Shown here: in pieces, positions 5,126 through 33,459 of the stretch
Layout: the number at the start of each line of letters is the position of its first letter
Position numbering within the stretch: position 1 is the stretch's first letter
NCBI GenBank assembly: GCA_038321315.1
Contig: JBBQEX010000005.1
Span: forward strand, 1 to 36,096
Direction: 5' to 3'
Origin: Haliangiales bacterium
Lineage (GTDB): Bacteria > Myxococcota_A > Polyangia > Haliangiales > Haliangiaceae
DNA length: 36,096 nt
Translations under genes and position numbers: made by a program
The notes under the pieces: model-generated
Seen by the model: only the letters and a program-made list of their open reading frames with translations
Database searches by the model: none
What the model was told of the DNA's origin: nothing

Positions 5126-5893
5126 GTGGTCCGGGTCCTCCTCGTCTTCGTGCTGCTCGGTGCGCATGTCGCCGCGGCGCAGATCGTCAATGCGCAGAGC
5201 GCGCTCGCAGCGCCGTCCAAGGGCAACGGCGTCGTCGGCTCGGTCGAGGCCAAGATCGACTGGCGCGAGGGCAACAACTCGCTGATCGACACCAGCGCGA
5301 CCGCCACGCTGGTCGTCCGCCACGATCGCATCCTCGTCCTGGGCGTCGCGCGCGGCGGCTACGGCGAGAGCCGCGGCCAGGTGCTCACGAAGAAGACGTT
5401 CGAGCACCTGCGGACCCGCATCAAGCTCGACCCGCGCTGGCGCTGGGAGGGCTACGCGCAGCACGAGTACGACCAGTTCCGCCGGATCGCGCTGCGCGCC
5501 CTGGTCGGGACCGGCCCGGCCCTCGTGGTGTTCGACCGGCCCGCCGGCGGCATGATCTCGGGGCTTTCGCTGATGTTCGACTACGAGCGGCTCGATCAGC
5601 GGCGCGGCACGATCGACGCCGGCAAGCGCTACGGCGTGTTTCGCGCGTCGGCGTACCTCGCGGGGCACGAGCAACTCGCGCCGAGCGCGCTGCTGATCCA
5701 GACCATCTACGTCCAGCCGCGGTTCGACGACGCGAGCGCGTATCGCGTGCTCGGCGAGCTGACGCTGCTCAACAAGCTGTCGTCGCGGATCGCGCTGACC
5801 AACGGCTTCTCGGTGTCGTACGACGCGACGCCGCCGGTCGGCGTCAAGCGCTACGACGCCGAGCTCAAGGTCGGTGCGGTCGTGTCGTTTTGA
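5126..5893 (+). CDS. DUF481-family (YdiY-like) outer-membrane beta-barrel protein
   Basis: GTG start 7 nt after the secretin stop. Signal peptide MVRVLLVFVLLGAHVAAAQ. Alternating hydrophobic beta pattern. C-terminal ...GAVVSF ends in Phe, the usual outer-membrane-protein signal. Confidence 0.55.
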   Translation: MVRVLLVFVLLGAHVAAAQIVNAQSALAAPSKGNGVVGSVEAKIDWREGNNSLIDTSATATLVVRHDRILVLGVARGGYGESRGQVLTKKTFEHLRTRIKLDPRWRWEGYAQHEYDQFRRIALRALVGTGPALVVFDRPAGGMISGLSLMFDYERLDQRRGTIDAGKRYGVFRASAYLAGHEQLAPSALLIQTIYVQPRFDDASAYRVLGELTLLNKLSSRIALTNGFSVSYDATPPVGVKRYDAELKVGAVVSF

Positions 5894-12926: not shown

Positions 12927-13763
12927 TCATCGCGTGACGGTATAGCCCGCGCGCGCGAGCAGGGTAGGGAGGCCGCCGTCGCCGAGCAGGTGGCCGAGGC
13001 CGACCGCGACGAACGTCGTGCCGGTCGCGTCGACGTAGGCCTCGATCTTCGGCAGCCACACCGTGTTGCGATCGGAGATCAGGTGCGAGCTGTCGACCAG
13101 CAGCTTGATCTTCAGCGCCTCGGCGTCGCTCGCGAGGTACGCGGCCTGCGTCTGATCCTGGCTGCAGCGGATCGAGCGCCGCGCGTGGATCGCGTCCGCG
13201 AGGTCGCTCGGCGCGACCGCGGCGTCGAGCGCGGCGAGCTGCACCTCCCAGGTCTCCAGTGCATCGATCGGCAGGTGGTGCTCGCTGGCGCGTGCGGTGA
13301 GCGCGTCGTCCATCGACGGCTTCGGCGCCGGCGCGACCTTCGCCATCAGCTTGATCATGGCGTACCACGGCTTGGCGTGACGGAGATCCTCGGTGTGGAT
13401 CGTGCCGTGCAACGCGTCGTCGAGCGCCCACCAGTCGTCGTTCGCGAGCAGGCCATCGAGCGACTTGCCGCCGTACGGGATGCGCGCGAGCTCGATGAAC
13501 TTGTCCTTGTCGGGCTCCTTGTCGCCGAGCTCCGACGCGTAGTGCTGTGCGCTCGCGAGCGCGTCCCACACCGGCTTGGCGACGTCGGGCGTCGACGCGG
13601 TGTGGATCGTGCCGAACAGGATCACCGCGCCGGGCGCGCCGGCCTTGGTGACGTGCCACAGGAACGGCGCGCCGTGCGGAGCGCTGTACTTCGGCAGCTC
13701 GCAGCGCGGTGCCGGCGTGCCGCACGCCGCGAGGGCGAGCACGAGCAGCGCGCGGGTCACCAC
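12927..13763 (-). CDS. TraB/GumN (TIKI-like) family lipoprotein
   Basis: Signal peptide with lipobox VVTRALLVLALAACG. Motifs LFGTIHTAS (GTxH) and VAVGLGHLLG (GxGHL) are characteristic of the TraB/GumN/TIKI family. The GTG start overlaps the stop of the upstream gene as GTGA. Confidence 0.65.
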   Translation of the reverse strand: MVTRALLVLALAACGTPAPRCELPKYSAPHGAPFLWHVTKAGAPGAVILFGTIHTASTPDVAKPVWDALASAQHYASELGDKEPDKDKFIELARIPYGGKSLDGLLANDDWWALDDALHGTIHTEDLRHAKPWYAMIKLMAKVAPAPKPSMDDALTARASEHHLPIDALETWEVQLAALDAAVAPSDLADAIHARRSIRCSQDQTQAAYLASDAEALKIKLLVDSSHLISDRNTVWLPKIEAYVDATGTTFVAVGLGHLLGDGGLPTLLARAGYTVTR

Positions 13764-14869
13764 AGCTTGTGCGGCCCGACGAGCGCGTCGACCTCGTCGT
13801 CGCTCGGTCCGGATTTCAGCTTGATCGTCGCGACGCCATCGGTCCCGACGGTGACGTCGAGGACGGTCGGCGCCGGCGCCGGCTTGGCGGTCACCTTGCC
13901 GTTCCCGGCGAGCACGTCGACGTCGACCGAGCGCGAGACCGGAACGTCGACGAGCGGGCAGCGCGGTGGCGTCTTCGCGTCGCCGGCGACGCACAGCGTC
14001 AACAGCTTGGCGTGCTCGAACTCCGAGCGCGTGTCGTCGTCGTTCGTCGAGCTCATCGAGTTCTGCGTGTTCTCGACGTTGCGCCAGATCCACCAGACGT
14101 CGTGCTTGCCGACCGACTTCTTCTCGACCTTGTCGATGAACGTCGCCTCGACGCCCTGCATCCGATCGATGTCGAGCTCGGCATCGGCGACGTAGCGGCC
14201 GGCATCGTCGAACAGGTACGCGTAGCTGCCGCGACCCCGCAGCTCCCACAGGTGGAGCCCGGCGAGCGGCGCCGGCGTCTTCTCCTCGCAGGTCGCGTCC
14301 GCGGCGTCGAAGTGTGGCGTGAACGCGTTCTCCTTCAGGCACGCGCACGGCTTCTGGTTCGGCTTGCACGCGAGCCCGGCGACCTCGGCTGGCGCCTTGG
14401 GGTTCTGCCCGAGGCGCACGATCGCGTCGCCGACCGTCTTGTTCGGGCGCAGCGCGACCGACGCGAGGTACGCGCGCACCGCGCCATCCTTGTCGCCCGA
14501 CTTCTCGAGCACGGTGCCGAGGTTGTAGAGGGCCGCGGCCTTCACCTTCTTGTCGATCGCGACCGCGACGGCCTCCTCGTCGGCGATCCGCGCCTTCTTG
14601 AAGTCGCCGGCGTTCATCGCCGAGAACCCCAGCTCGCCGAGCGCGCGCGCGTCGGCCGGGACCGCGACGAGCGCGGCCTCGAACTCGGGTACCGCGGCGG
14701 CCCACTGCTTGGTCTTCTGCGCCGCCCAGCCGCGCTTCATGTGCTGCTTGAACTCGGTCTTGGCCTTGGCGGTCGGCGGCGGCGGCGCCTTGTGTGGTCT
14801 GGGATCGGCGACCGCGGCCGAGGCGATCGCGAGGACGAGGACGACAGCGCGCTTCATCGCCTTCACCAT
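13757..14869 (-). CDS. Secreted TPR-like, Cys-rich protein (paralog B of a tandem pair)
   Basis: Signal peptide MKRAVVLVLAIASAAVA. TPR-like block WAAAVPEFEAALVAVPADARALGELGFSAMNAGDFKKAR. Conserved Cys pattern CKPNQKPCACLK…ATCEE…LCVAGDAKTPPRCPL. C-terminal SGPSDDEVDALVGPHKLW is shared with the gene at 14863-16056. Confidence 0.6.
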   Translation of the reverse strand: MVKAMKRAVVLVLAIASAAVADPRPHKAPPPPTAKAKTEFKQHMKRGWAAQKTKQWAAAVPEFEAALVAVPADARALGELGFSAMNAGDFKKARIADEEAVAVAIDKKVKAAALYNLGTVLEKSGDKDGAVRAYLASVALRPNKTVGDAIVRLGQNPKAPAEVAGLACKPNQKPCACLKENAFTPHFDAADATCEEKTPAPLAGLHLWELRGRGSYAYLFDDAGRYVADAELDIDRMQGVEATFIDKVEKKSVGKHDVWWIWRNVENTQNSMSSTNDDDTRSEFEHAKLLTLCVAGDAKTPPRCPLVDVPVSRSVDVDVLAGNGKVTAKPAPAPTVLDVTVGTDGVATIKLKSGPSDDEVDALVGPHKLW

Positions 14870-16056
14870 AGCTTGTGCGGGCCCACGAGGGCGTCGATCT
14901 GTTCGTCGCTCGGGCCCGACGTCAGCTTGATCGTGACCACACCGTCGGCGCCGAGCGCGACGTCGAGCAGCGTCTCGGTCGAGCTCGACTTCTTGGCGAC
15001 CTTGTCGTCGGGCCCGAGGGTCTCGCTCTCGAGCTTGCGCTGCTTCGGGATCCCGACGAGCGGACAGCGCGTCGGCTGCTTGGCCTCGCCGACCACGCAG
15101 ATCGTGACCTCGTGCCCGGTCAGGATCTCGGTCGTGACGTCGTCGTCATCGCCGGTCGACTCGCTCGAGTTGTCGATCGACGTCTCGATCCACAGCACCT
15201 GGTGGGTCCCGAGCTTCTTGACCTCGATCCTGTCGACCGTCGTGGTCTGCATCGCGCGGCGCTGTTCGTCCTCGAGGCCGAGGTCGGCGATGTAGCGACC
15301 GGCGTCGTCGAACAGGTAGTCGAACTCGGTGTGCGTGCGGTCGTCGTCTTCCTGCTTCCACACGTGGAAGCCGGGCGCGGGTGGCGGACCCTCGGTGCAC
15401 TTCGCGACGTCCGACGTCATCTTGCCCATGAACGCGTCCTGCTTCATGCAGTCGCACGGCTTCTGATCGGGCTTGCAGACCTCGGTGACCGCGACCGCCG
15501 GATCCTTGCCGAGCTTGCCGACCGCCTCCATCACCGTCTTGTTCGGGCGCAGCGCGAGCGACGCGACGTACGACTTGAGCGCGCCGTCCTTGTCGCCGGT
15601 CTTCTCCTGCACGGTGCCGAGGTTGTAGAGGCCCGCGGCCTTCACCTTCTTGTCGACCGCGATCGCGATCGCCTGCTCGTCGGCCTCGCGCGCCTTCTTG
15701 AAGTCGCCGGCGTTCATCGCCGACCAGCCGAGCTCGGTGAGCGCGCGCGGATCACTCGGGATCGCGACGAGCGCGGCCTCGAACTCCGGCACCGACTCCG
15801 CCCACTTCTTGGCCTTCTGCGCCGTCCAGCCTGCCTTCAGGTGCTTCTTGAACTCGGCCTTCTGCTCGGCGGTCGCCGGGGCGTGCTTGTGCGTCCGCTT
15901 CTTCGACGGCGCCGCGGAGCCCGAGCCCGCCTTCGGCGCCTCGACGACCTTCGGCGCGACCGCGCTGCCGCTGCCGCTGCCGGTCTTCGCCGGATCGTTC
16001 GCAGGTGCCTTGCCGCAGCCGACCGTCAACACCGCGACCGCGAGCAGGAGCTTCAT
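14863..16056 (-). CDS. TPR-like, Cys-rich lipoprotein (paralog A of a tandem pair)
   Basis: Lipoprotein signal MKLLLAVAVLTVGCG. Gly/Ser/Ala/Pro/Lys-rich linker. The same TPR-like block and Cys pattern (CKPDQKPCDCMK…AKCTEG…ICVVGEAKQPTRCPL). C-terminal SGPSDEQIDALVGPHKLW. ATG at 16054-16056. Confidence 0.65.
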   Translation of the reverse strand: MKLLLAVAVLTVGCGKAPANDPAKTGSGSGSAVAPKVVEAPKAGSGSAAPSKKRTHKHAPATAEQKAEFKKHLKAGWTAQKAKKWAESVPEFEAALVAIPSDPRALTELGWSAMNAGDFKKAREADEQAIAIAVDKKVKAAGLYNLGTVQEKTGDKDGALKSYVASLALRPNKTVMEAVGKLGKDPAVAVTEVCKPDQKPCDCMKQDAFMGKMTSDVAKCTEGPPPAPGFHVWKQEDDDRTHTEFDYLFDDAGRYIADLGLEDEQRRAMQTTTVDRIEVKKLGTHQVLWIETSIDNSSESTGDDDDVTTEILTGHEVTICVVGEAKQPTRCPLVGIPKQRKLESETLGPDDKVAKKSSSTETLLDVALGADGVVTIKLTSGPSDEQIDALVGPHKLW

Positions 16057-16069
16057 GGCGCGGACGGTA

Positions 16070-16738
16070 CTACGGCTGTCGCGGGAAGCCCTCGAACAGG
16101 TAGCCGCGATCGGAGCCACCGTCGATCAACCGGACCGCGCAGTTGTGCGGATTGGTCTCGGCCTCGAACCACTCGGGCGACAGGTGACACCACATCATGA
16201 CGAACGCGCGCAGCGTCACGCCGTGGCAGATCACGACGAGGTTCTTGATGCCGTGCTCGATGTGATCGCGATGGAACGTCCCGAACGCCTGGTGGATGCG
16301 CTTGGCGACATCGAACCGGCTCTCGCCCATCGGCATACGTGCCCAGAACTTGCCGCCGAACCGACACGTCATGTCGTAGTACGCGTGCTCCTGCGGGAAG
16401 CGCACCGGCAGATCCTCGTCGGGCACGCCGTCGAACAGGCCGAACTGTTGCTCGCACAGGAGGATGTGCTCGACGCGATCGGTGATCCACGGACCGCAGG
16501 TCTCCATCAGCGCGTCGGCGGTCTGGCGCGTGCGCAGGTACGGGCTCACCCACAGCCGCACGTGCGGGCGCGAGTCACCGAGATCCGCGGCGAGGCTCGC
16601 GGCGACGCGGCGGCCGGCCTCGCGCGCCTGCTCGACGCCGCGATCCGACAGCGGCACCGCGTGATCCGCCGTGGTCTGGTGGATCTGCGCGTTCAGGTTG
16701 CCGAGCGACTCGCCGTGACGCACGAGGATGATCCGCAC
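16070..16738 (-). CDS. Histidine phosphatase superfamily protein (phosphoglycerate-mutase-like branch)
   Basis: VRIILVRHGESLGN (the RHG catalytic motif) near the N-terminus, and a later HG in the GHGIKNLVVICHGVT region. GTG start 14 nt downstream of the previous gene's stop. The remaining upstream codons of the 830-aa ORF are junk. Confidence 0.65.
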   Translation of the reverse strand: MRIILVRHGESLGNLNAQIHQTTADHAVPLSDRGVEQAREAGRRVAASLAADLGDSRPHVRLWVSPYLRTRQTADALMETCGPWITDRVEHILLCEQQFGLFDGVPDEDLPVRFPQEHAYYDMTCRFGGKFWARMPMGESRFDVAKRIHQAFGTFHRDHIEHGIKNLVVICHGVTLRAFVMMWCHLSPEWFEAETNPHNCAVRLIDGGSDRGYLFEGFPRQP

Positions 16739-19327: not shown

Positions 19328-19861
19328 GTGCGGACCCTCACGATCTGCGTCCTCCTCGCGACGCCCGCCGTCGCCGGGGCCGATGGCCTCCATCCCTACG
19401 CGCCGGTCTCGACCTCGCTGTCGGTCATGATCCGCGACGATCACGGCGGAGGCACCGAGACCACCTCGGCGGGCGCGACGCTCGAGCTCGCCGTCGGATC
19501 GGGCCGGTTCCAGTACTTCGCCGAAGGCACCAGCGCCTTTCTCCAGAGCACCGATTCCGGCAGCGAGATGCGCGGCGGGCTCGGCGTGCGCTGGCTCGCG
19601 CGCTCGTTCGAGATCGGTCGCGAAGGTGCGTTCGAGCTCGATCTCGAGGGCCTCACCGGGCTGACCCGGTTGCACCACGACGCCGGTGACACCCGGGTGT
19701 ATCCCGACGTCGGCTTCGGCGTCGGCTGGGCGGTGCGCATGCTCGATCCGCGCATCGTGTTCCGCGTCAGCGCGCGCGCGATGTTCGAGCAGACCCGGCG
19801 TGATGGTATGTCGGCGTCGAGCGTGCCCGGGTTCGTCGCCCTGTTCGGGTTCGGCTACTGA
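19328..19861 (+). CDS. Small secreted beta-rich hypothetical protein
   Basis: GTG start with signal peptide VRTLTICVLLATPAVAGA. Ends …FVALFGFGY. Its stop overlaps the next ATG as TGATG. Confidence 0.45.
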   Translation: MRTLTICVLLATPAVAGADGLHPYAPVSTSLSVMIRDDHGGGTETTSAGATLELAVGSGRFQYFAEGTSAFLQSTDSGSEMRGGLGVRWLARSFEIGREGAFELDLEGLTGLTRLHHDAGDTRVYPDVGFGVGWAVRMLDPRIVFRVSARAMFEQTRRDGMSASSVPGFVALFGFGY

Positions 19862-20421
19862 TGCGCGCGCTGATCGTCACCGTGGTCCTCCTCGTCGCGG
19901 GTCGCGCCCAGGCCGACGGGGTCGACCTCGTCGCCAAGCTCGGGTTTCGCGTCGGCTACGGCCCGATGTCGTTCGCGCACCGATCGGTGAGCGCGACGTC
20001 GATCGAGATCGGCGTCGAGCATCCGGTGTTCGGCAACACGCGCGTGTTCGGCGAGTGGGAGTGGATGTGGCTGTCGGAGCGCGATCCGGATCAGGCGATG
20101 GCGATCGGTCGCGAGCCGACGCACGGCAGCGGCCAGCGCGTCTCGGCCGGCCTGCGGCACGCGCTGATCGCGAAGTCGCACCACGAGATGGCCTGGTACC
20201 TCGACGGCGAGCTCGGCGGCGGCGCGATGCTCGCGAGCGAGGACACGCTCGGCACCCACGCGGTCCCGACCGGCATCGTCGGGATGCGGCTCGGGTTCGA
20301 CTTCAGGAACGGCGACTCGACGTCACGCGTGTTCGAGACCGAGATCCTCGTGCGCGCCCTCGTCACCCCGCGCGACGGCACCGGCCTCCTGGTCGGGGTC
20401 GGCATGCTGTGGGGCGACTGA
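19861..20421 (+). CDS. Small secreted beta-rich hypothetical protein
   Basis: Signal peptide MRALIVTVVLLVAGRAQA. Alternating hydrophobic pattern. Translationally coupled to the upstream gene. Confidence 0.5.
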   Translation: MRALIVTVVLLVAGRAQADGVDLVAKLGFRVGYGPMSFAHRSVSATSIEIGVEHPVFGNTRVFGEWEWMWLSERDPDQAMAIGREPTHGSGQRVSAGLRHALIAKSHHEMAWYLDGELGGGAMLASEDTLGTHAVPTGIVGMRLGFDFRNGDSTSRVFETEILVRALVTPRDGTGLLVGVGMLWGD

Positions 20422-20575
20422 TCGGGCGCTGCCGGCACTTTTCCATGACGCGACCTGGTCGCGTCGTTCGGGCGCTGCCGGCACTTTTCCATGACGCGAC
20501 CTGGTCGCGTCGTTCGGGCGCTGCCCTCACTTTTCCATGACGCGACCTGGTCGCGTCGTTCGGGCGCTGCCCTCA
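20422..20575. repeat. 46-bp direct tandem repeat, about 3.3 copies, each unit carrying a 9-bp-stem hairpin
   Basis: Unit cgggcgctgccggcacttttccatgacgcgacctggtcgcgtcgtt at 20422, 20468 and 20514 (third copy gccctcac instead of gccggcac) plus a partial copy. The inner gacgcgacc-t-ggtcgcgtc is a perfect inverted repeat. The array fills the whole gap between two convergent genes. Confidence 0.85.
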
Positions 20576-20580
20576 CGGAC

Positions 20581-21234
20581 CTACTTCAGCTGGAGCAGCT
20601 TGAACGCGTGGGTCCAGCTGCCGCCGCGCATGCCCGGGATGCACCACAGCATGCAGAGCGGCTCGATCGCGCGGGCGCTCTCGACCGCACCCATGTCGGC
20701 CGTGTCCCAGCCGATCTCGGCGAGGATCTCGGTCGCCTGCTTCTTCGCGCCGGCGTCGTTGCCGCAGATGAACATCGTCGGCTTGCTCGCGAACGGTGGG
20801 TCGATCATGAACGCGTTGCCGACGCACGAGAACGCCTTCACGAAGTGCGCGTCAGGGACCGCCTTCTGCAGCCGCTCCATCAGCGACTCGTTCGGCCCGG
20901 TGAAGTAGTGCAGCACGCCGTTGACCGGCGGCCGATCGGGATCGATCGGGTTCGTCGCGTCCATCACGAGCTTGCCGGCGAGGTTCGAATGCCCGGCCTC
21001 CTCGAGCGCGTTCTCGGCACCGCTGCCCTTGACCGCGAGCACGACCGCCTCGCCCCACGCCGCGGCTTCGGCGAACGTGCCGACCGACGCGTCGCCCTTG
21101 GCCTGCGACTTCCAGCGCTCGAGCTTGGCGGGCTCGCGCGAGCCGCGCATCACCGCGTAGCCGTGCTTCAAGAAGCCGTTGCCGAGGGTCTCGCCGACCT
21201 GTCCCGATCCGAGGATCGCGATCTTCTCTGTCAT
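20581..21234 (-). CDS. NAD(P)-binding oxidoreductase of the NADPH-dependent F420 reductase (Npd-like) family
   Basis: N-terminal Rossmann motif MTEKIAILGSGQVGETLG. Family-typical length of 217 aa. Start at Met98 of ORF 20581..21525, and the ATGA overlap with the upstream gene's stop supports it. Confidence 0.6.
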   Translation of the reverse strand: MTEKIAILGSGQVGETLGNGFLKHGYAVMRGSREPAKLERWKSQAKGDASVGTFAEAAAWGEAVVLAVKGSGAENALEEAGHSNLAGKLVMDATNPIDPDRPPVNGVLHYFTGPNESLMERLQKAVPDAHFVKAFSCVGNAFMIDPPFASKPTMFICGNDAGAKKQATEILAEIGWDTADMGAVESARAIEPLCMLWCIPGMRGGSWTHAFKLLQLK

Positions 21235-22094
21235 GACCGGACAGTCGCGCGCGCGACGCCGGTCTTCAAGTAGTACGACCAGTAGCCGATCGAACTCCCG
21301 TAGCGCCGCTCGATCGCGCGCACGTCGTAGTCGGCGCCGTACAGGGTCCGGGCCTGGTCCTCGAACAGCTTCATCGTCGGTAGCTCGTCCATCCGGCCGA
21401 GCCCGCGCAACAGGATCGCGCCCGCCGAGAACGGCCCGATGCCGTCGATCTCGAGCAGGGCGTCGCGCGCGTCGGCGTACGGCGCGTTGGTCAGGAAGTC
21501 CTCGCCGAGCGCGGCGACCCCGCACACGACCTTCGCGATCGACTGACCCTTGGGACCGTGGCCGATCGCCTTGCCGATCGCGTCGCCGTCGAGCTCGACG
21601 AGCTCGTCGAACTCGGGCATCGCGCGGAGCACCGTGCCGTCGGCGGTCAGCACCGGGCGACCGAAGCGCTCGACGAACTTCCGCTTCATCGCCGCGGCGC
21701 GGGTGATCGGGTTGCGCTGCATCATCACGCAGTAGACCGCGATCTCCTCGAGCGTCAGGAACCGCACGTGGTGGAGGCCGTGGAGCTCCGCGACGAGCGC
21801 CCGCATCGGCGGATCGCCGGCGGCCGTGGCGTAGAACCCGCCGAGATCCTCGTGGGCACCGATGAACTTCGCGGCGATCCGCGCGACCGACTCCGGCGCG
21901 CGCGGCGACAGCTCGAGCGTGACCTCGCGATCGCCGCGCAGCGTGAACCAGTGGCTGCCGCCCTCGCGCGCGACCGCGGCGGTCACCGAATCCGGGGTCA
22001 CGACATAGTCCCGGTTGATCGGGCAGAACCGCTGGATGAAGGTGATCGACTGGGCGAGGGAGAATGGCTGCCGGGTGGGGAGCGTGATCTTCAT
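21231..22094 (-). CDS. DNA-3-methyladenine glycosylase II (AlkA-like, HhH-GPD superfamily)
   Basis: Helix-hairpin-helix/GPD region LLEIDGIGPFSAGAILLRGLGRMD. AlkA-like N-terminal fold region. Start at MKITLP (22092-22094). Confidence 0.65.
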   Translation of the reverse strand: MKITLPTRQPFSLAQSITFIQRFCPINRDYVVTPDSVTAAVAREGGSHWFTLRGDREVTLELSPRAPESVARIAAKFIGAHEDLGGFYATAAGDPPMRALVAELHGLHHVRFLTLEEIAVYCVMMQRNPITRAAAMKRKFVERFGRPVLTADGTVLRAMPEFDELVELDGDAIGKAIGHGPKGQSIAKVVCGVAALGEDFLTNAPYADARDALLEIDGIGPFSAGAILLRGLGRMDELPTMKLFEDQARTLYGADYDVRAIERRYGSSIGYWSYYLKTGVARATVRS

Positions 22095-22160
22095 GTCCAC
22101 GGTGTTACGGCGGCCTTCTGTCAACCTTATGTCAGCTTATAGCCGCTACATTGGCCCCTG

Positions 22161-27406: not shown

Positions 27407-29014
27407 ATGCGATCCTCGATCCTCCTGATCTTCGCGGTCGCCGCGTGTGGCGACGACGGTGGTCACCCGGCCGGTCCCGACGCCAACACGATCACGCCGC
27501 CGGGCAAGACGTGTGGCGCGCCGGTCACCGCGGTCGACACCTCGACGCCGGCTCACGTGGTCGGCGACGGCACCGCGGGCTCGTGCACCGAGGGTGCGCT
27601 CGCGACCGCGCTCGCCGCCGGTGGCACGATCGCGTTCTCGTGCGGCGGGCCGGCGACGATCGCGGTCACCGCGACGCTGTCCGTGCGCACCGACGTCGAC
27701 ACCACGATCGACGGCGGCGGCATGGTCACGCTCGACGGCGGCGACGCGGTGCGCATCCTGTCGTTCGATCACGGTGACTATCGCAAGAACCACACGGTGC
27801 TCACGCTGCAGCACGTCACGCTCGCGCACGGCCGCGCGCACGGCACGACGATGTACGCCCCCGCGCCGGCACCGTGCTCGCAGGGCTACTACGATGGCTA
27901 TGGCGGCGCGCTGAACTTTCGCGACGGCGAGCTCGTCGTCATCGACTCGACGTTCGTCGGCAACCAGGCCGAGGCGCTCGGGCCTGACGTCGGCGGCGGT
28001 GCGATCGCGCTGCTCGGCGCGAGCCGCGTGATCATCGCGACCAGCACGTTCACCGGCAACAAGGGCTCGAGCGGCGGGGCGATCAACTCGCTCAACAGCG
28101 AGCTCGAGGTCTACGACTCGAACTTCGATGGCAATGTCGCCGAGGGCAACGGGGCCAACAGTGACGACGCGTCGAAGTGCGCGGTCGTCGCGACCAACGG
28201 CCAGCACCAGGTCGGCTCGGGCGGCAACGCCGGCGCGATCGGGATCGACGGCGGCGACGATCTCACGCACGTGTTCTGCGGCGTGCACTTCACGAACAAC
28301 CAGAGCGGCCTCGGCGCCCTCGGTGGCGCGCTCGGGCGCACGCCGGATCGCGATCGTCAGACCACGGTGATCGACCGCTGTACGTTCGACGGCAACACCG
28401 GCGACTCCGCCGCGGCGCTGTACTTTCACAACAGCGAGCTCGACATCACCGCGACGACGTTCTCGAACAACGTCGCGCAGAAGGGCAGCGGCGCGATCCA
28501 GGCCGACGGCACGCACTTCCAGATCCTCAACTCGACGTTCACCGGCAACCGCGCGATGGCCGGCCTCGGCGGTGCGGTGTCGCTGTTCGGCGGCGACGGC
28601 ACCATCGCGTTCTCGACGTTCGCGGCCAACCACGCCGACGGCGGCGATCCCTACTTCGGCGCCGCGATCGGCGGCAACCCGACGTTGACGCTGGTCGGCG
28701 ACCTGTTCGTCGACAACACCGCGCAGAACCCCGGCGCGCCGATGCAGTGCCACGTGACCGGCACCGGCGACGGCGACCTCCAGTGGCCGCGCGGTCACGT
28801 CGTCGGCGGCGGCGACGATGCGCCGTGCACGCCGACAACGACGTTCGCCGATCCACTACTCGGCCCGCTCGGCGATCACGGCGGCGCGAGCGCGACCTTG
28901 GTCCCCGCCGCGACCGGGCCGGCCCATGGCGCCGGCGTGATGTGCCCGGCGACCGATCAGCGTGGCATGCCGCGCCCGGCGACCGGCTGCACCTCCGGCA
29001 GCGTCGAGCCCTGA
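27407..29014 (+). CDS. Lipoprotein with right-handed parallel beta-helix repeats and a C-terminal DQRG-containing region (choice-of-anchor-Q-like)
   Basis: Lipobox LLIFAVAACG. Repeated beta-helix turns (FVGNQAE, FTGNKGS, FDGNVAEGNGA, FTNNQSG, FDGNTGD, FSNNVAQ, FTGNRA, FAANHADGG, FVDNTAQ). C-terminal DPLLGPLGDHGG…CPATDQRGMPRP. A GAGGGA Shine-Dalgarno lies 5 nt upstream. Confidence 0.6.
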   Translation: MRSSILLIFAVAACGDDGGHPAGPDANTITPPGKTCGAPVTAVDTSTPAHVVGDGTAGSCTEGALATALAAGGTIAFSCGGPATIAVTATLSVRTDVDTTIDGGGMVTLDGGDAVRILSFDHGDYRKNHTVLTLQHVTLAHGRAHGTTMYAPAPAPCSQGYYDGYGGALNFRDGELVVIDSTFVGNQAEALGPDVGGGAIALLGASRVIIATSTFTGNKGSSGGAINSLNSELEVYDSNFDGNVAEGNGANSDDASKCAVVATNGQHQVGSGGNAGAIGIDGGDDLTHVFCGVHFTNNQSGLGALGGALGRTPDRDRQTTVIDRCTFDGNTGDSAAALYFHNSELDITATTFSNNVAQKGSGAIQADGTHFQILNSTFTGNRAMAGLGGAVSLFGGDGTIAFSTFAANHADGGDPYFGAAIGGNPTLTLVGDLFVDNTAQNPGAPMQCHVTGTGDGDLQWPRGHVVGGGDDAPCTPTTTFADPLLGPLGDHGGASATLVPAATGPAHGAGVMCPATDQRGMPRPATGCTSGSVEP

Positions 29015-32772: not shown

Positions 32773-33459
32773 ATGGTGATTGTCCTCGGGGCGGCGGCGC
32801 TCGTCGGCCTCCTCTACCTGTTCTGCTATGGCGGCTTCGGCGGCCCGGTCGACTGGATCATGAAGACCCAGCTGCACGGCGATCGCGGCCTGTCGCGGGT
32901 CGCGCTGACGTTCGACGACGGCCCCGATCCGGCGCACACGCCGGCGCTGCTCGACGCGCTCGCCGAGCTCCACGTCAAGGCGACGTTCTTCGTGCTCGGT
33001 GCCGAGGTCGACAAGCACCCCGCGCTGGTGCGCCGCATGGTCGCCGAGGGTCACGAGCTCGGTAACCACACGTACACGCACCGCTACCTGCCGCTGGCGC
33101 GCAGCAAGAACGTGATGAAGGAGCTCGCGGCGACCGATCGCGCGATCGCGCAGGCGACCGGCATCGTGACGACGCTCGCACGCCCGCCGTACGGTGGTCG
33201 CTCGCCGAAGACGGTGCGCGCGTTCGTCCGCGCGGCGAAGCGGCTGGTGCTGTGGGACGTCAACAGCTTCGACTGGAAGGGCAAGCCGGCGCCGGACGTC
33301 GTCGAGCGCGTGCTCGAGCGCACCCGGGCGGGCAGCATCATCCTCATGCACGAGGCGCGGCAGGGCGGAGACGTCACGATCGACGCGGTGCGGTTGCTCG
33401 TGCCGGCGCTGCGCGCGCGCGGCCTCGAGCCGGTCACGGTGTCGGGTCTGGCTCGATAG
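32773..33459 (+). CDS. Polysaccharide deacetylase (CE4 / NodB-homology domain), membrane-anchored
   Basis: N-terminal TM helix. TFDDGP (the catalytic Asp and metal-ligand motif), HELGNHTYTH (the His-His motif) and LMHE. Confidence 0.75.
   Translation: MVIVLGAAALVGLLYLFCYGGFGGPVDWIMKTQLHGDRGLSRVALTFDDGPDPAHTPALLDALAELHVKATFFVLGAEVDKHPALVRRMVAEGHELGNHTYTHRYLPLARSKNVMKELAATDRAIAQATGIVTTLARPPYGGRSPKTVRAFVRAAKRLVLWDVNSFDWKGKPAPDVVERVLERTRAGSIILMHEARQGGDVTIDAVRLLVPALRARGLEPVTVSGLAR

Follow-up and report, generated by a model that had tools for sequence, protein, structure and literature searches.

The gap between two convergent genes of the window, by which we mean the whole 36-kb stretch of DNA analysed here, is taken up almost entirely by a tandem array of a 46-nt palindrome-bearing unit. 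This array is, in form, a bacterial intergenic minisatellite, as its 46-nt units are joined head-to-tail, are non-coding, and lie between two verified stop codons. The reading that we favour, with moderate confidence, is that of an orphan, lineage-specific intergenic hairpin minisatellite, which was amplified locally and which would give structured 3' ends to the genes on either side. Rather than a new system, the array seems to be a bacterial minisatellite of the ordinary, lineage-specific sort, and the value of the case lies mostly in a clean negative, in that so striking a repeat turns out to be neither a CRISPR array nor a known RNA, canonical terminator or centromere. From an evolutionary standpoint, two convergent genes with stop codons that touch or overlap in their relatives have gained a 159-bp spacer with their coding sequences undisturbed, which shows how hairpin DNA can arise de novo between genes, even where the genome is very compact and GC-rich. 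Copy-number polymorphism is the practical hallmark of variable-number tandem repeats (VNTRs), and the locus represents a ready-made VNTR marker, provided that samples of the source population can be obtained.

Anatomy of the array

Tandem Repeats Finder (TRF), applied to the 36-kb window, reported an array of period 46 with 3.3 copies and 98% matches at 20422..20571, with a score of 286; the runner-up tandem array of the window scored only 66. An earlier, sequence-only reading of this DNA had described about 3.3 tandem copies of a 46-bp unit spanning 20422-20575. Both the copy number and the start agree with our results, but the end has to be moved, as the partial unit reaches 20576. The features of the locus, together with the evidence behind each, are as follows.

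19861..20421, + strand: gene A, 186 aa, with a signal-peptide-like N-terminus and of no known family; left boundary of the insertion (codon-position GC, homologue alignment)
20422..20576, no strand: tandem array of the 46-nt unit TCGGGCGCTGCCGGCACTTTTCCATGACGCGACCTGGTCGCGTCGT, with three full copies and a further 17 nt (TRF and register layout)
20422..20467, + strand: unit 1, GG variant (read from sequence)
20430..20437, no strand: self-complementary octamer TGCCGGCA in unit 1 (sequence, 80-nt fold)
20447..20465, no strand: perfect 9+1+9 palindrome GACGCGACC-T-GGTCGCGTC, copy 1 (motif scan)
20468..20513, + strand: unit 2, GG variant, exactly equal to unit 1 (read from sequence)
20476..20483, no strand: self-complementary octamer TGCCGGCA in unit 2 (sequence, fold)
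20493..20511, no strand: palindrome GACGCGACC-T-GGTCGCGTC, copy 2 (motif scan)
20514..20559, + strand: unit 3, CT variant at 20526-20527 (read from sequence)
20539..20557, no strand: palindrome GACGCGACC-T-GGTCGCGTC, copy 3 (motif scan)
20560..20576, + strand: partial unit 4, 17 nt, CT variant; each hairpin is bracketed by a 17-nt direct repeat, of which this is the right-hand copy (register layout)
20577..20580, no strand: GGAC, the sole 4 nt of the gap outside the repeat (sequence)
20581..21234, - strand: gene B, 217 aa, an NADP oxidoreductase (F420_oxidored / npdG-like family); right boundary of the insertion (domain hits, homologue alignment)

The array begins directly after the TGA of gene A, with TCGGGCG..., and ends as ...CTCAC before GGAC, which is followed by the reverse-strand stop codon of gene B (CTA, 20581-20583). 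The array therefore fills the convergent intergenic gap, as had been claimed, except for the four nucleotides GGAC. The perfect 9-bp inverted repeat noticed earlier in each unit is present in all three full copies. As a 19-nt palindrome, GACGCGACCTGGTCGCGTC, it has exactly three sites in the window, at 20447, 20493 and 20539, and it does not occur elsewhere in the 36 kb with up to three mismatches (0.34 expected by chance; 0 of 100 shuffles reached 6). The other half of the unit, which is not palindromic, has no copy in the window outside the array. All units share the same orientation, as set by their asymmetric flanks, and their period of 46 is not a multiple of three. The array and its palindromes are real and far beyond chance.

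Two further points concern the relationship between units. First, the stretches of 27 nt that separate the palindromes hardly differ, if at all, from unit to unit, the units follow each other head-to-tail, and no cas genes were found in the window, so that the view of the array as lacking spacers and not being CRISPR is upheld. Second, units differ at positions 13-14, where GG is replaced by CT in both copy 3 and the partial copy, giving the order GG, GG, CT, CT; this change alters the octamer TGCCGGCA to TGCCCTCA in unit 3 and in the partial unit. The shared variant had been taken as consistent with slippage or duplication, and our analysis supports this, since the variant order and the longest exact repeats within the array, of 58 and 49 nt, fit unequal exchange between direct repeats.

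The same repeat lengths bear on whether the array could be an assembly artefact, or have a mis-estimated copy number, in what is a metagenome-assembled contig. Two of the units are identical, so that extra identical units could have been collapsed; yet with exact internal repeats of at most 58 nt a k of at least 59 gives a unique path as written, and the array lies mid-contig between intact genes. Assemblers, moreover, usually collapse tandem repeats instead of inventing them. An artefact is thus unlikely, and we give this explanation as a whole hardly any weight, although the identical GG units could be under-counted.

Flanking genes and the gap in relatives

The stop codons at 20421 and 20581, proposed earlier to flank the array, are true gene ends. 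Third-position GC bias is 0.95 in both gene A and gene B, and the homologue alignments of both run to the last residue and finish in the same column, with ...GVGMLWGD and ...AFKLLQLK, respectively, followed by the stop. Gene A matched no Pfam or NCBIfam family, and its best homologue apart from the source itself is 54% identical. The repeat makes ORFs that start with MTRPGRVVRALP... on the + strand, which the sequence-only reading had already called spurious, and in antisense it leaves a frame without stops. All of these have a non-coding codon-position GC and can be dismissed as spurious.

The window as a whole, with a GC content of 70%, looks chromosomal and housekeeping. It encodes a secretin, a DUF481 protein, TPR, Kelch and VWA proteins, peptidases and an ABC transporter, and no transposase (including Y1_Tnp), partition (ParA/ParB), replication or cas genes were found among the proteins of the 36 kb. 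The named homologues of its genes come from Kofleriaceae or from 'Proteobacteria' metagenome-assembled genomes (MAGs), and the source is probably an uncultured organism resembling myxobacteria.

To read the junction in relatives, gene A homologues were traced to their contigs and the boundary with the downstream gene was inspected, with the following results. First, one relative (L053, GCA_026387715.1) has kept the neighbourhood in full, that is, His_Phos_1, DUF2330, Kelch, a small protein, the A homologue and a convergent B homologue that is 79% identical to gene B; its A/B junction, ...tggggtgacTGAgcTCAgcc..., reads TGA-gc-TCA, with a gap of 2 bp. Second, in a contig from ENA with the same gene pair (L058), the stops overlap by 4 nt (CTAA; ...gacTAAccc...). 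The protein ends in this comparison of L053 and L058 are identical to those of the window (...MLWGD and ...KLLQL(K/G), each followed by the stop). Third, three further relatives have a different gene downstream of the A homologue, with gaps of 7, 25 and 51 bp, and in the more distant L055 the 51-bp gap after the A homologue holds one unrelated GC hairpin. The array is missing from all relatives compared. Because the stops of relatives are 2 bp apart or overlapping, and both C-termini are intact, the 159-bp gap of the window, nearly all of it one amplified hairpin unit, is a clean lineage-specific insertion exactly between two stop codons.

The gap is also at odds with the rest of the window, where the gap measures -29, 0 and -26 nt in the other three convergent pairs with good support (a 29-nt overlap at 5865-5893, abutting ends at 29014/29015, and a 26-nt overlap at 33434-33459). 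A long convergent spacer is an exception in this genome, and overlap of the 3' ends of convergent genes seems to be the norm, which would imply routine antisense read-through between such genes. Given the A/B stops of relatives and these other convergent pairs, a required function for the array is unlikely.

How the array may have formed can be read from its internal repeats. In the simplest history, which we infer, a piece of DNA of about 63 nt came between the stops of two convergent genes that abut in relatives, and in this proto-element a perfect palindrome of 19 nt had a 17-nt direct repeat (TCGGGCGCTGCC(GG/CT)CAC) on either side. The 17-nt repeats would then have allowed slippage during replication or unequal crossover, probably helped by the hairpin, and so have led to the 46-nt period at 3.4 copies; such amplification predicts the ordered pattern of GG and CT variants that is observed. 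The possibility that the unit arose locally, from the 3' ends of genes A and B, was considered and rejected, as the similarity between them does not go beyond chance words of 8-14 nt.

Some observations on the surroundings can be added. The start of gene B overlaps the stop of gene C by ATGA. Gene C (21231-22100, - strand, 289 aa) has a weak ogg/HhH-GPD-like glycosylase match in NCBIfam and no Pfam match, and it is missing at the same position in relatives, where an ABC permease (L058) or an AAA/WHD gene (L053) is found directly upstream of the B homologue; more than one rearrangement has taken place around gene B. Between gene C and the ABC-transporter operon, the divergent gap (22101-22160) is AT-richer than its surroundings and contains a direct repeat, CCTTATGTCA(A/G)C (TRF 22114-22134), which is a candidate operator or promoter element of this NMT1/SsuA-like transporter operon. 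On the other side, gene A and the gene before it (19328-19861 and 19861-20421, with a TGATG overlap) both encode small proteins of no known family with signal-peptide-like N-termini. This pair is kept adjacent in the uncultured myxobacterium-like contigs L053, L055, L056, L058, L059 and L060, adjoins a DUF2330 gene in L053 and L060, in the former also with Kelch and His_Phos_1 genes, and represents an uncharacterised conserved two-gene module. Further away, the adjacent and overlapping TPR-repeat genes 13757-14869 and 14863-16119 (- strand) have the same TPR-family matches, with the best TPR_2 repeat of the second lying 50 residues further along, and are likely tandem paralogues.

Predicted folds and transcript ends

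As + strand RNA, a single unit is predicted to fold into a 10-bp stem (AUGACGCGAC / GUCGCGUCGU), which includes an A-U and U-G extension, with a 3-nt loop; as - strand RNA, the prediction is an 8-bp stem, also with a 3-nt loop. The free energy of a single unit, of -16 to -19 kcal/mol, bears out as a prediction the stable GC hairpins that had been proposed, and is unremarkable for shuffled sequence of 70% GC (z = -0.9 to -2.0). Folding of the whole array, which the sequence-only reading had called for, gave z = -4.2 and -4.5 against shuffles, and no other intergenic gap of the window is as structured as the one that holds it (-0.55 versus -0.11 to -0.43 kcal/mol per nt). The first hairpin lies 23 nt past the stop of gene A and 21 nt past that of gene B. 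In a predicted 80-nt fold, the TGCCGGCA copies of units 1 and 2 can pair with each other, enclosing hairpin 1. Such pairing between units is absent from units 3-4, because the change from GG to CT destroys it.

The sequence-only reading had proposed that stable GC hairpins between convergent genes would act as a bidirectional terminator or mRNA stabiliser, and strong GC stem-loops are indeed predicted 21-23 nt past each stop of this convergent gap. In its canonical form, that is, an intrinsic (Rho-independent) terminator kept for ending both convergent transcripts, the terminator explanation failed our test and appears quite unlikely. The tails after the stem are GUUCGGGCG on the + strand and AUGGAAAAGUG on the - strand, with no U-tract on either; the T-run (TTTT) lies 5' of the stem on the + strand, and thus appears as an A-run 3' of the stem on the - strand, so that it is misplaced for either direction. 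A terminator scan found none in the array. Moreover, relatives with a gap of at most 2 bp or overlapping stops, and the other convergent pairs of the window, do without such a gap. Across the window, canonical motifs of a hairpin plus T-run are at chance level (9 found versus 9.6 expected), as are sigma-70 promoter motifs (1 found versus 1.3 expected), and this organism probably uses signals other than canonical terminators and sigma-70 promoters. Since terminator motifs are at chance level window-wide, the missing canonical terminator at the array is not decisive against an effect that is independent of a U-tract.

Palindromes that are perfect around a single central base typify sites bound by proteins more than they do RNA hairpins. 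The array could be thought of as protein-binding DNA, with three evenly spaced palindromes for dimer binding that serve as a centromere of the sopC type, an iteron set or a multi-operator. The centre of the 9+1+9 palindromes is too small for an ideal hairpin loop, their spacing is exactly 46 bp, and their layout is formally like that of F-plasmid sopC (PMC3177203). However, no ParA/ParB/Rep or other candidate binding gene was found in the 36-kb window, the site lies downstream of both genes, where there is nothing for an operator to regulate, the array is missing from all relatives, and there is no plasmid or phage match. We therefore regard this possibility as very improbable.

Under the minisatellite reading that we favour, each of the convergent mRNAs would gain an 8-10-bp GC-rich stem-loop about 22 nt past its stop, and then further copies of it. 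The most likely RNA effect of such a structured 3' end would be to hinder 3'-to-5' exonucleases, and the hairpins may also impede polymerases that read into the antisense of the neighbouring gene. The array is probably close to neutral, and not conserved.

Further copies and known kinds of repeat

The unit has no other copy in everything that could be searched. Short-word BLAST found no second or partial copy in the window or in the syntenic loci of relatives. The exact 19-mer palindrome, searched in 185,579 GTDB genomes, each standing for one species, gave 50 loci with a single occurrence each, several of them ordinary longer hairpins; these matches were rejected as chance, as their flanks are unrelated to the unit. 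A unit-specific 20-mer had two matches in JGI metagenomes, both inside an unrelated, lower-GC coding region and likewise rejected as chance. BLAST against plasmids and phages and a scan of viral contigs gave no match to the unit. A HMMER search of low sensitivity with the antisense translation of the array, meant to catch spurious ORFs called in other copies of the unit, returned only two unrelated low-GC translated satellites from 1.84 billion representative proteins. In Rfam 15, the array matches no family at gathering score, and a permissive E-value yielded only sub-threshold chance matches, such as MIR918 with 23.9 bits versus a gathering score of 268. Lastly, our search of the literature on myxobacterial REP elements, and on tandem hairpin repeats between convergent genes, found nothing relevant.

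Arrays of this period are not rare but a common kind, as about 416 kb of unrelated loci contained three more tandem arrays with periods of 42-50 nt. An uncultured delta-proteobacterium MAG carries a 42-bp tandem repeat of 9.9 copies (L029, 6628-7043; 94% matches), which is unrelated to our unit.

These searches have to be weighed against the question of where the unit came from. The ancestral gap of at most 2 bp cannot supply 63 nt by local duplication, so that the first 63 nt must have been imported from elsewhere, possibly from a mobile element. This need is the main argument for another explanation, which we consider possible but doubtful, namely, that the unit belongs to a genome-wide family of small mobile hairpin elements, REP/REPIN- or MITE-like and moved by a transposase encoded elsewhere, and that one copy landed in the only permissive spot between abutting genes and was amplified there. 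The sequence of the unit is indeed foreign to its surroundings, its survival in so small a target would speak for many attempts at insertion or for a targeted one, and with its 46-nt size, palindromic core and place outside genes it matches REPs as generally described. In Pseudomonas fluorescens SBW25, moreover, REPs and REPINs are known to form ordered tandem arrays together with their flanks (PMC3116915). On the other hand, the 36 kb contain no second copy, either with three mismatches or by short-word BLAST, and no Y1 or other transposase; the array is without terminal inverted repeats or target-site duplication; and the GTDB, JGI, plasmid, phage and viral-contig searches described above produced nothing but unrelated matches. 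A family of 300 copies in an assumed 10-Mb genome is expected to have about 1 copy per 36 kb, and the finding of 0 extra copies in the window argues only against a very abundant family. In its most specific version, an undescribed REP/MITE-like element of an uncultured Kofleriaceae-like lineage, inserting precisely between abutting convergent stops, this scenario seems rather improbable. If true, such an element would make a structured spacer where relatives have none.

When compared with known systems, the array lacks a defining feature of each of several kinds, and the CRISPR, BIME, MITE, canonical terminator and centromere readings were rejected on these grounds. It has neither the unique spacers of a CRISPR array nor a cas domain in the window, and it has the stem of an intrinsic terminator without the U-tract on either strand. 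The description of the array as REP/BIME-like or MITE-like holds for likeness of form, and does not extend to BIME orientation, terminal inverted repeats or target-site duplication. BIMEs consist of alternating REPs plus defined linker motifs, whereas the units here have one orientation; and unlike MITEs, the array has no terminal inverted repeats or target-site duplication, and no other copies were found in the window or the syntenic loci.

REPs are typically imperfect palindromes, present in tens to hundreds per genome and tied to a RAYT (Y1 transposase) gene, which they usually flank, and REPINs are inverted doublets of them (PMC3116915, PMC3337134). Our unit resembles both in being a short extragenic element with a palindromic core that is able to form a hairpin. 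It differs from REPs in that its palindrome is perfect, and from REPINs in that its units are all direct. Neither dispersal nor a RAYT was seen in the 36-kb window. In sopC of the F plasmid, 12 direct repeats of 43 bp each contain a 16-bp inverted repeat bound by SopB (PMC3177203). The array shares with it direct repeats of about 43-46 bp with one inverted repeat each, here a 19-bp palindrome. Nevertheless, sopC has 12 units and lies beside sopAB on a plasmid, whereas here there are three palindromes in a chromosomal-looking setting, with no ParA/ParB domains in 36 kb and no plasmid or phage similarity.

At the level of RNA, the nearest precedent would be the malE-malF REP of E. coli, which Newbury et al. 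reportedly recognised in 1987 as a 3' stabiliser of mRNA. As in that case, a predicted stable stem-loop follows shortly after the stop codon and could block 3' exonucleases; the element described here is not conserved in relatives.

At the level of DNA, the comparison is with the mycobacterial MIRUs of Supply et al., which are said to be intergenic minisatellites, or VNTR loci, of about 46-100 bp, reportedly found inside operons between co-directional genes, with the members of the family scattered across some 40 loci in a single genome. The gap here is convergent and a single locus is known. Like MIRUs and other VNTRs, the array is built from a head-to-tail unit of 40-100 bp in an intergenic position, with a period that is not a multiple of three, and its near-identical copies carry ordered variants that point to slippage or unequal crossover.
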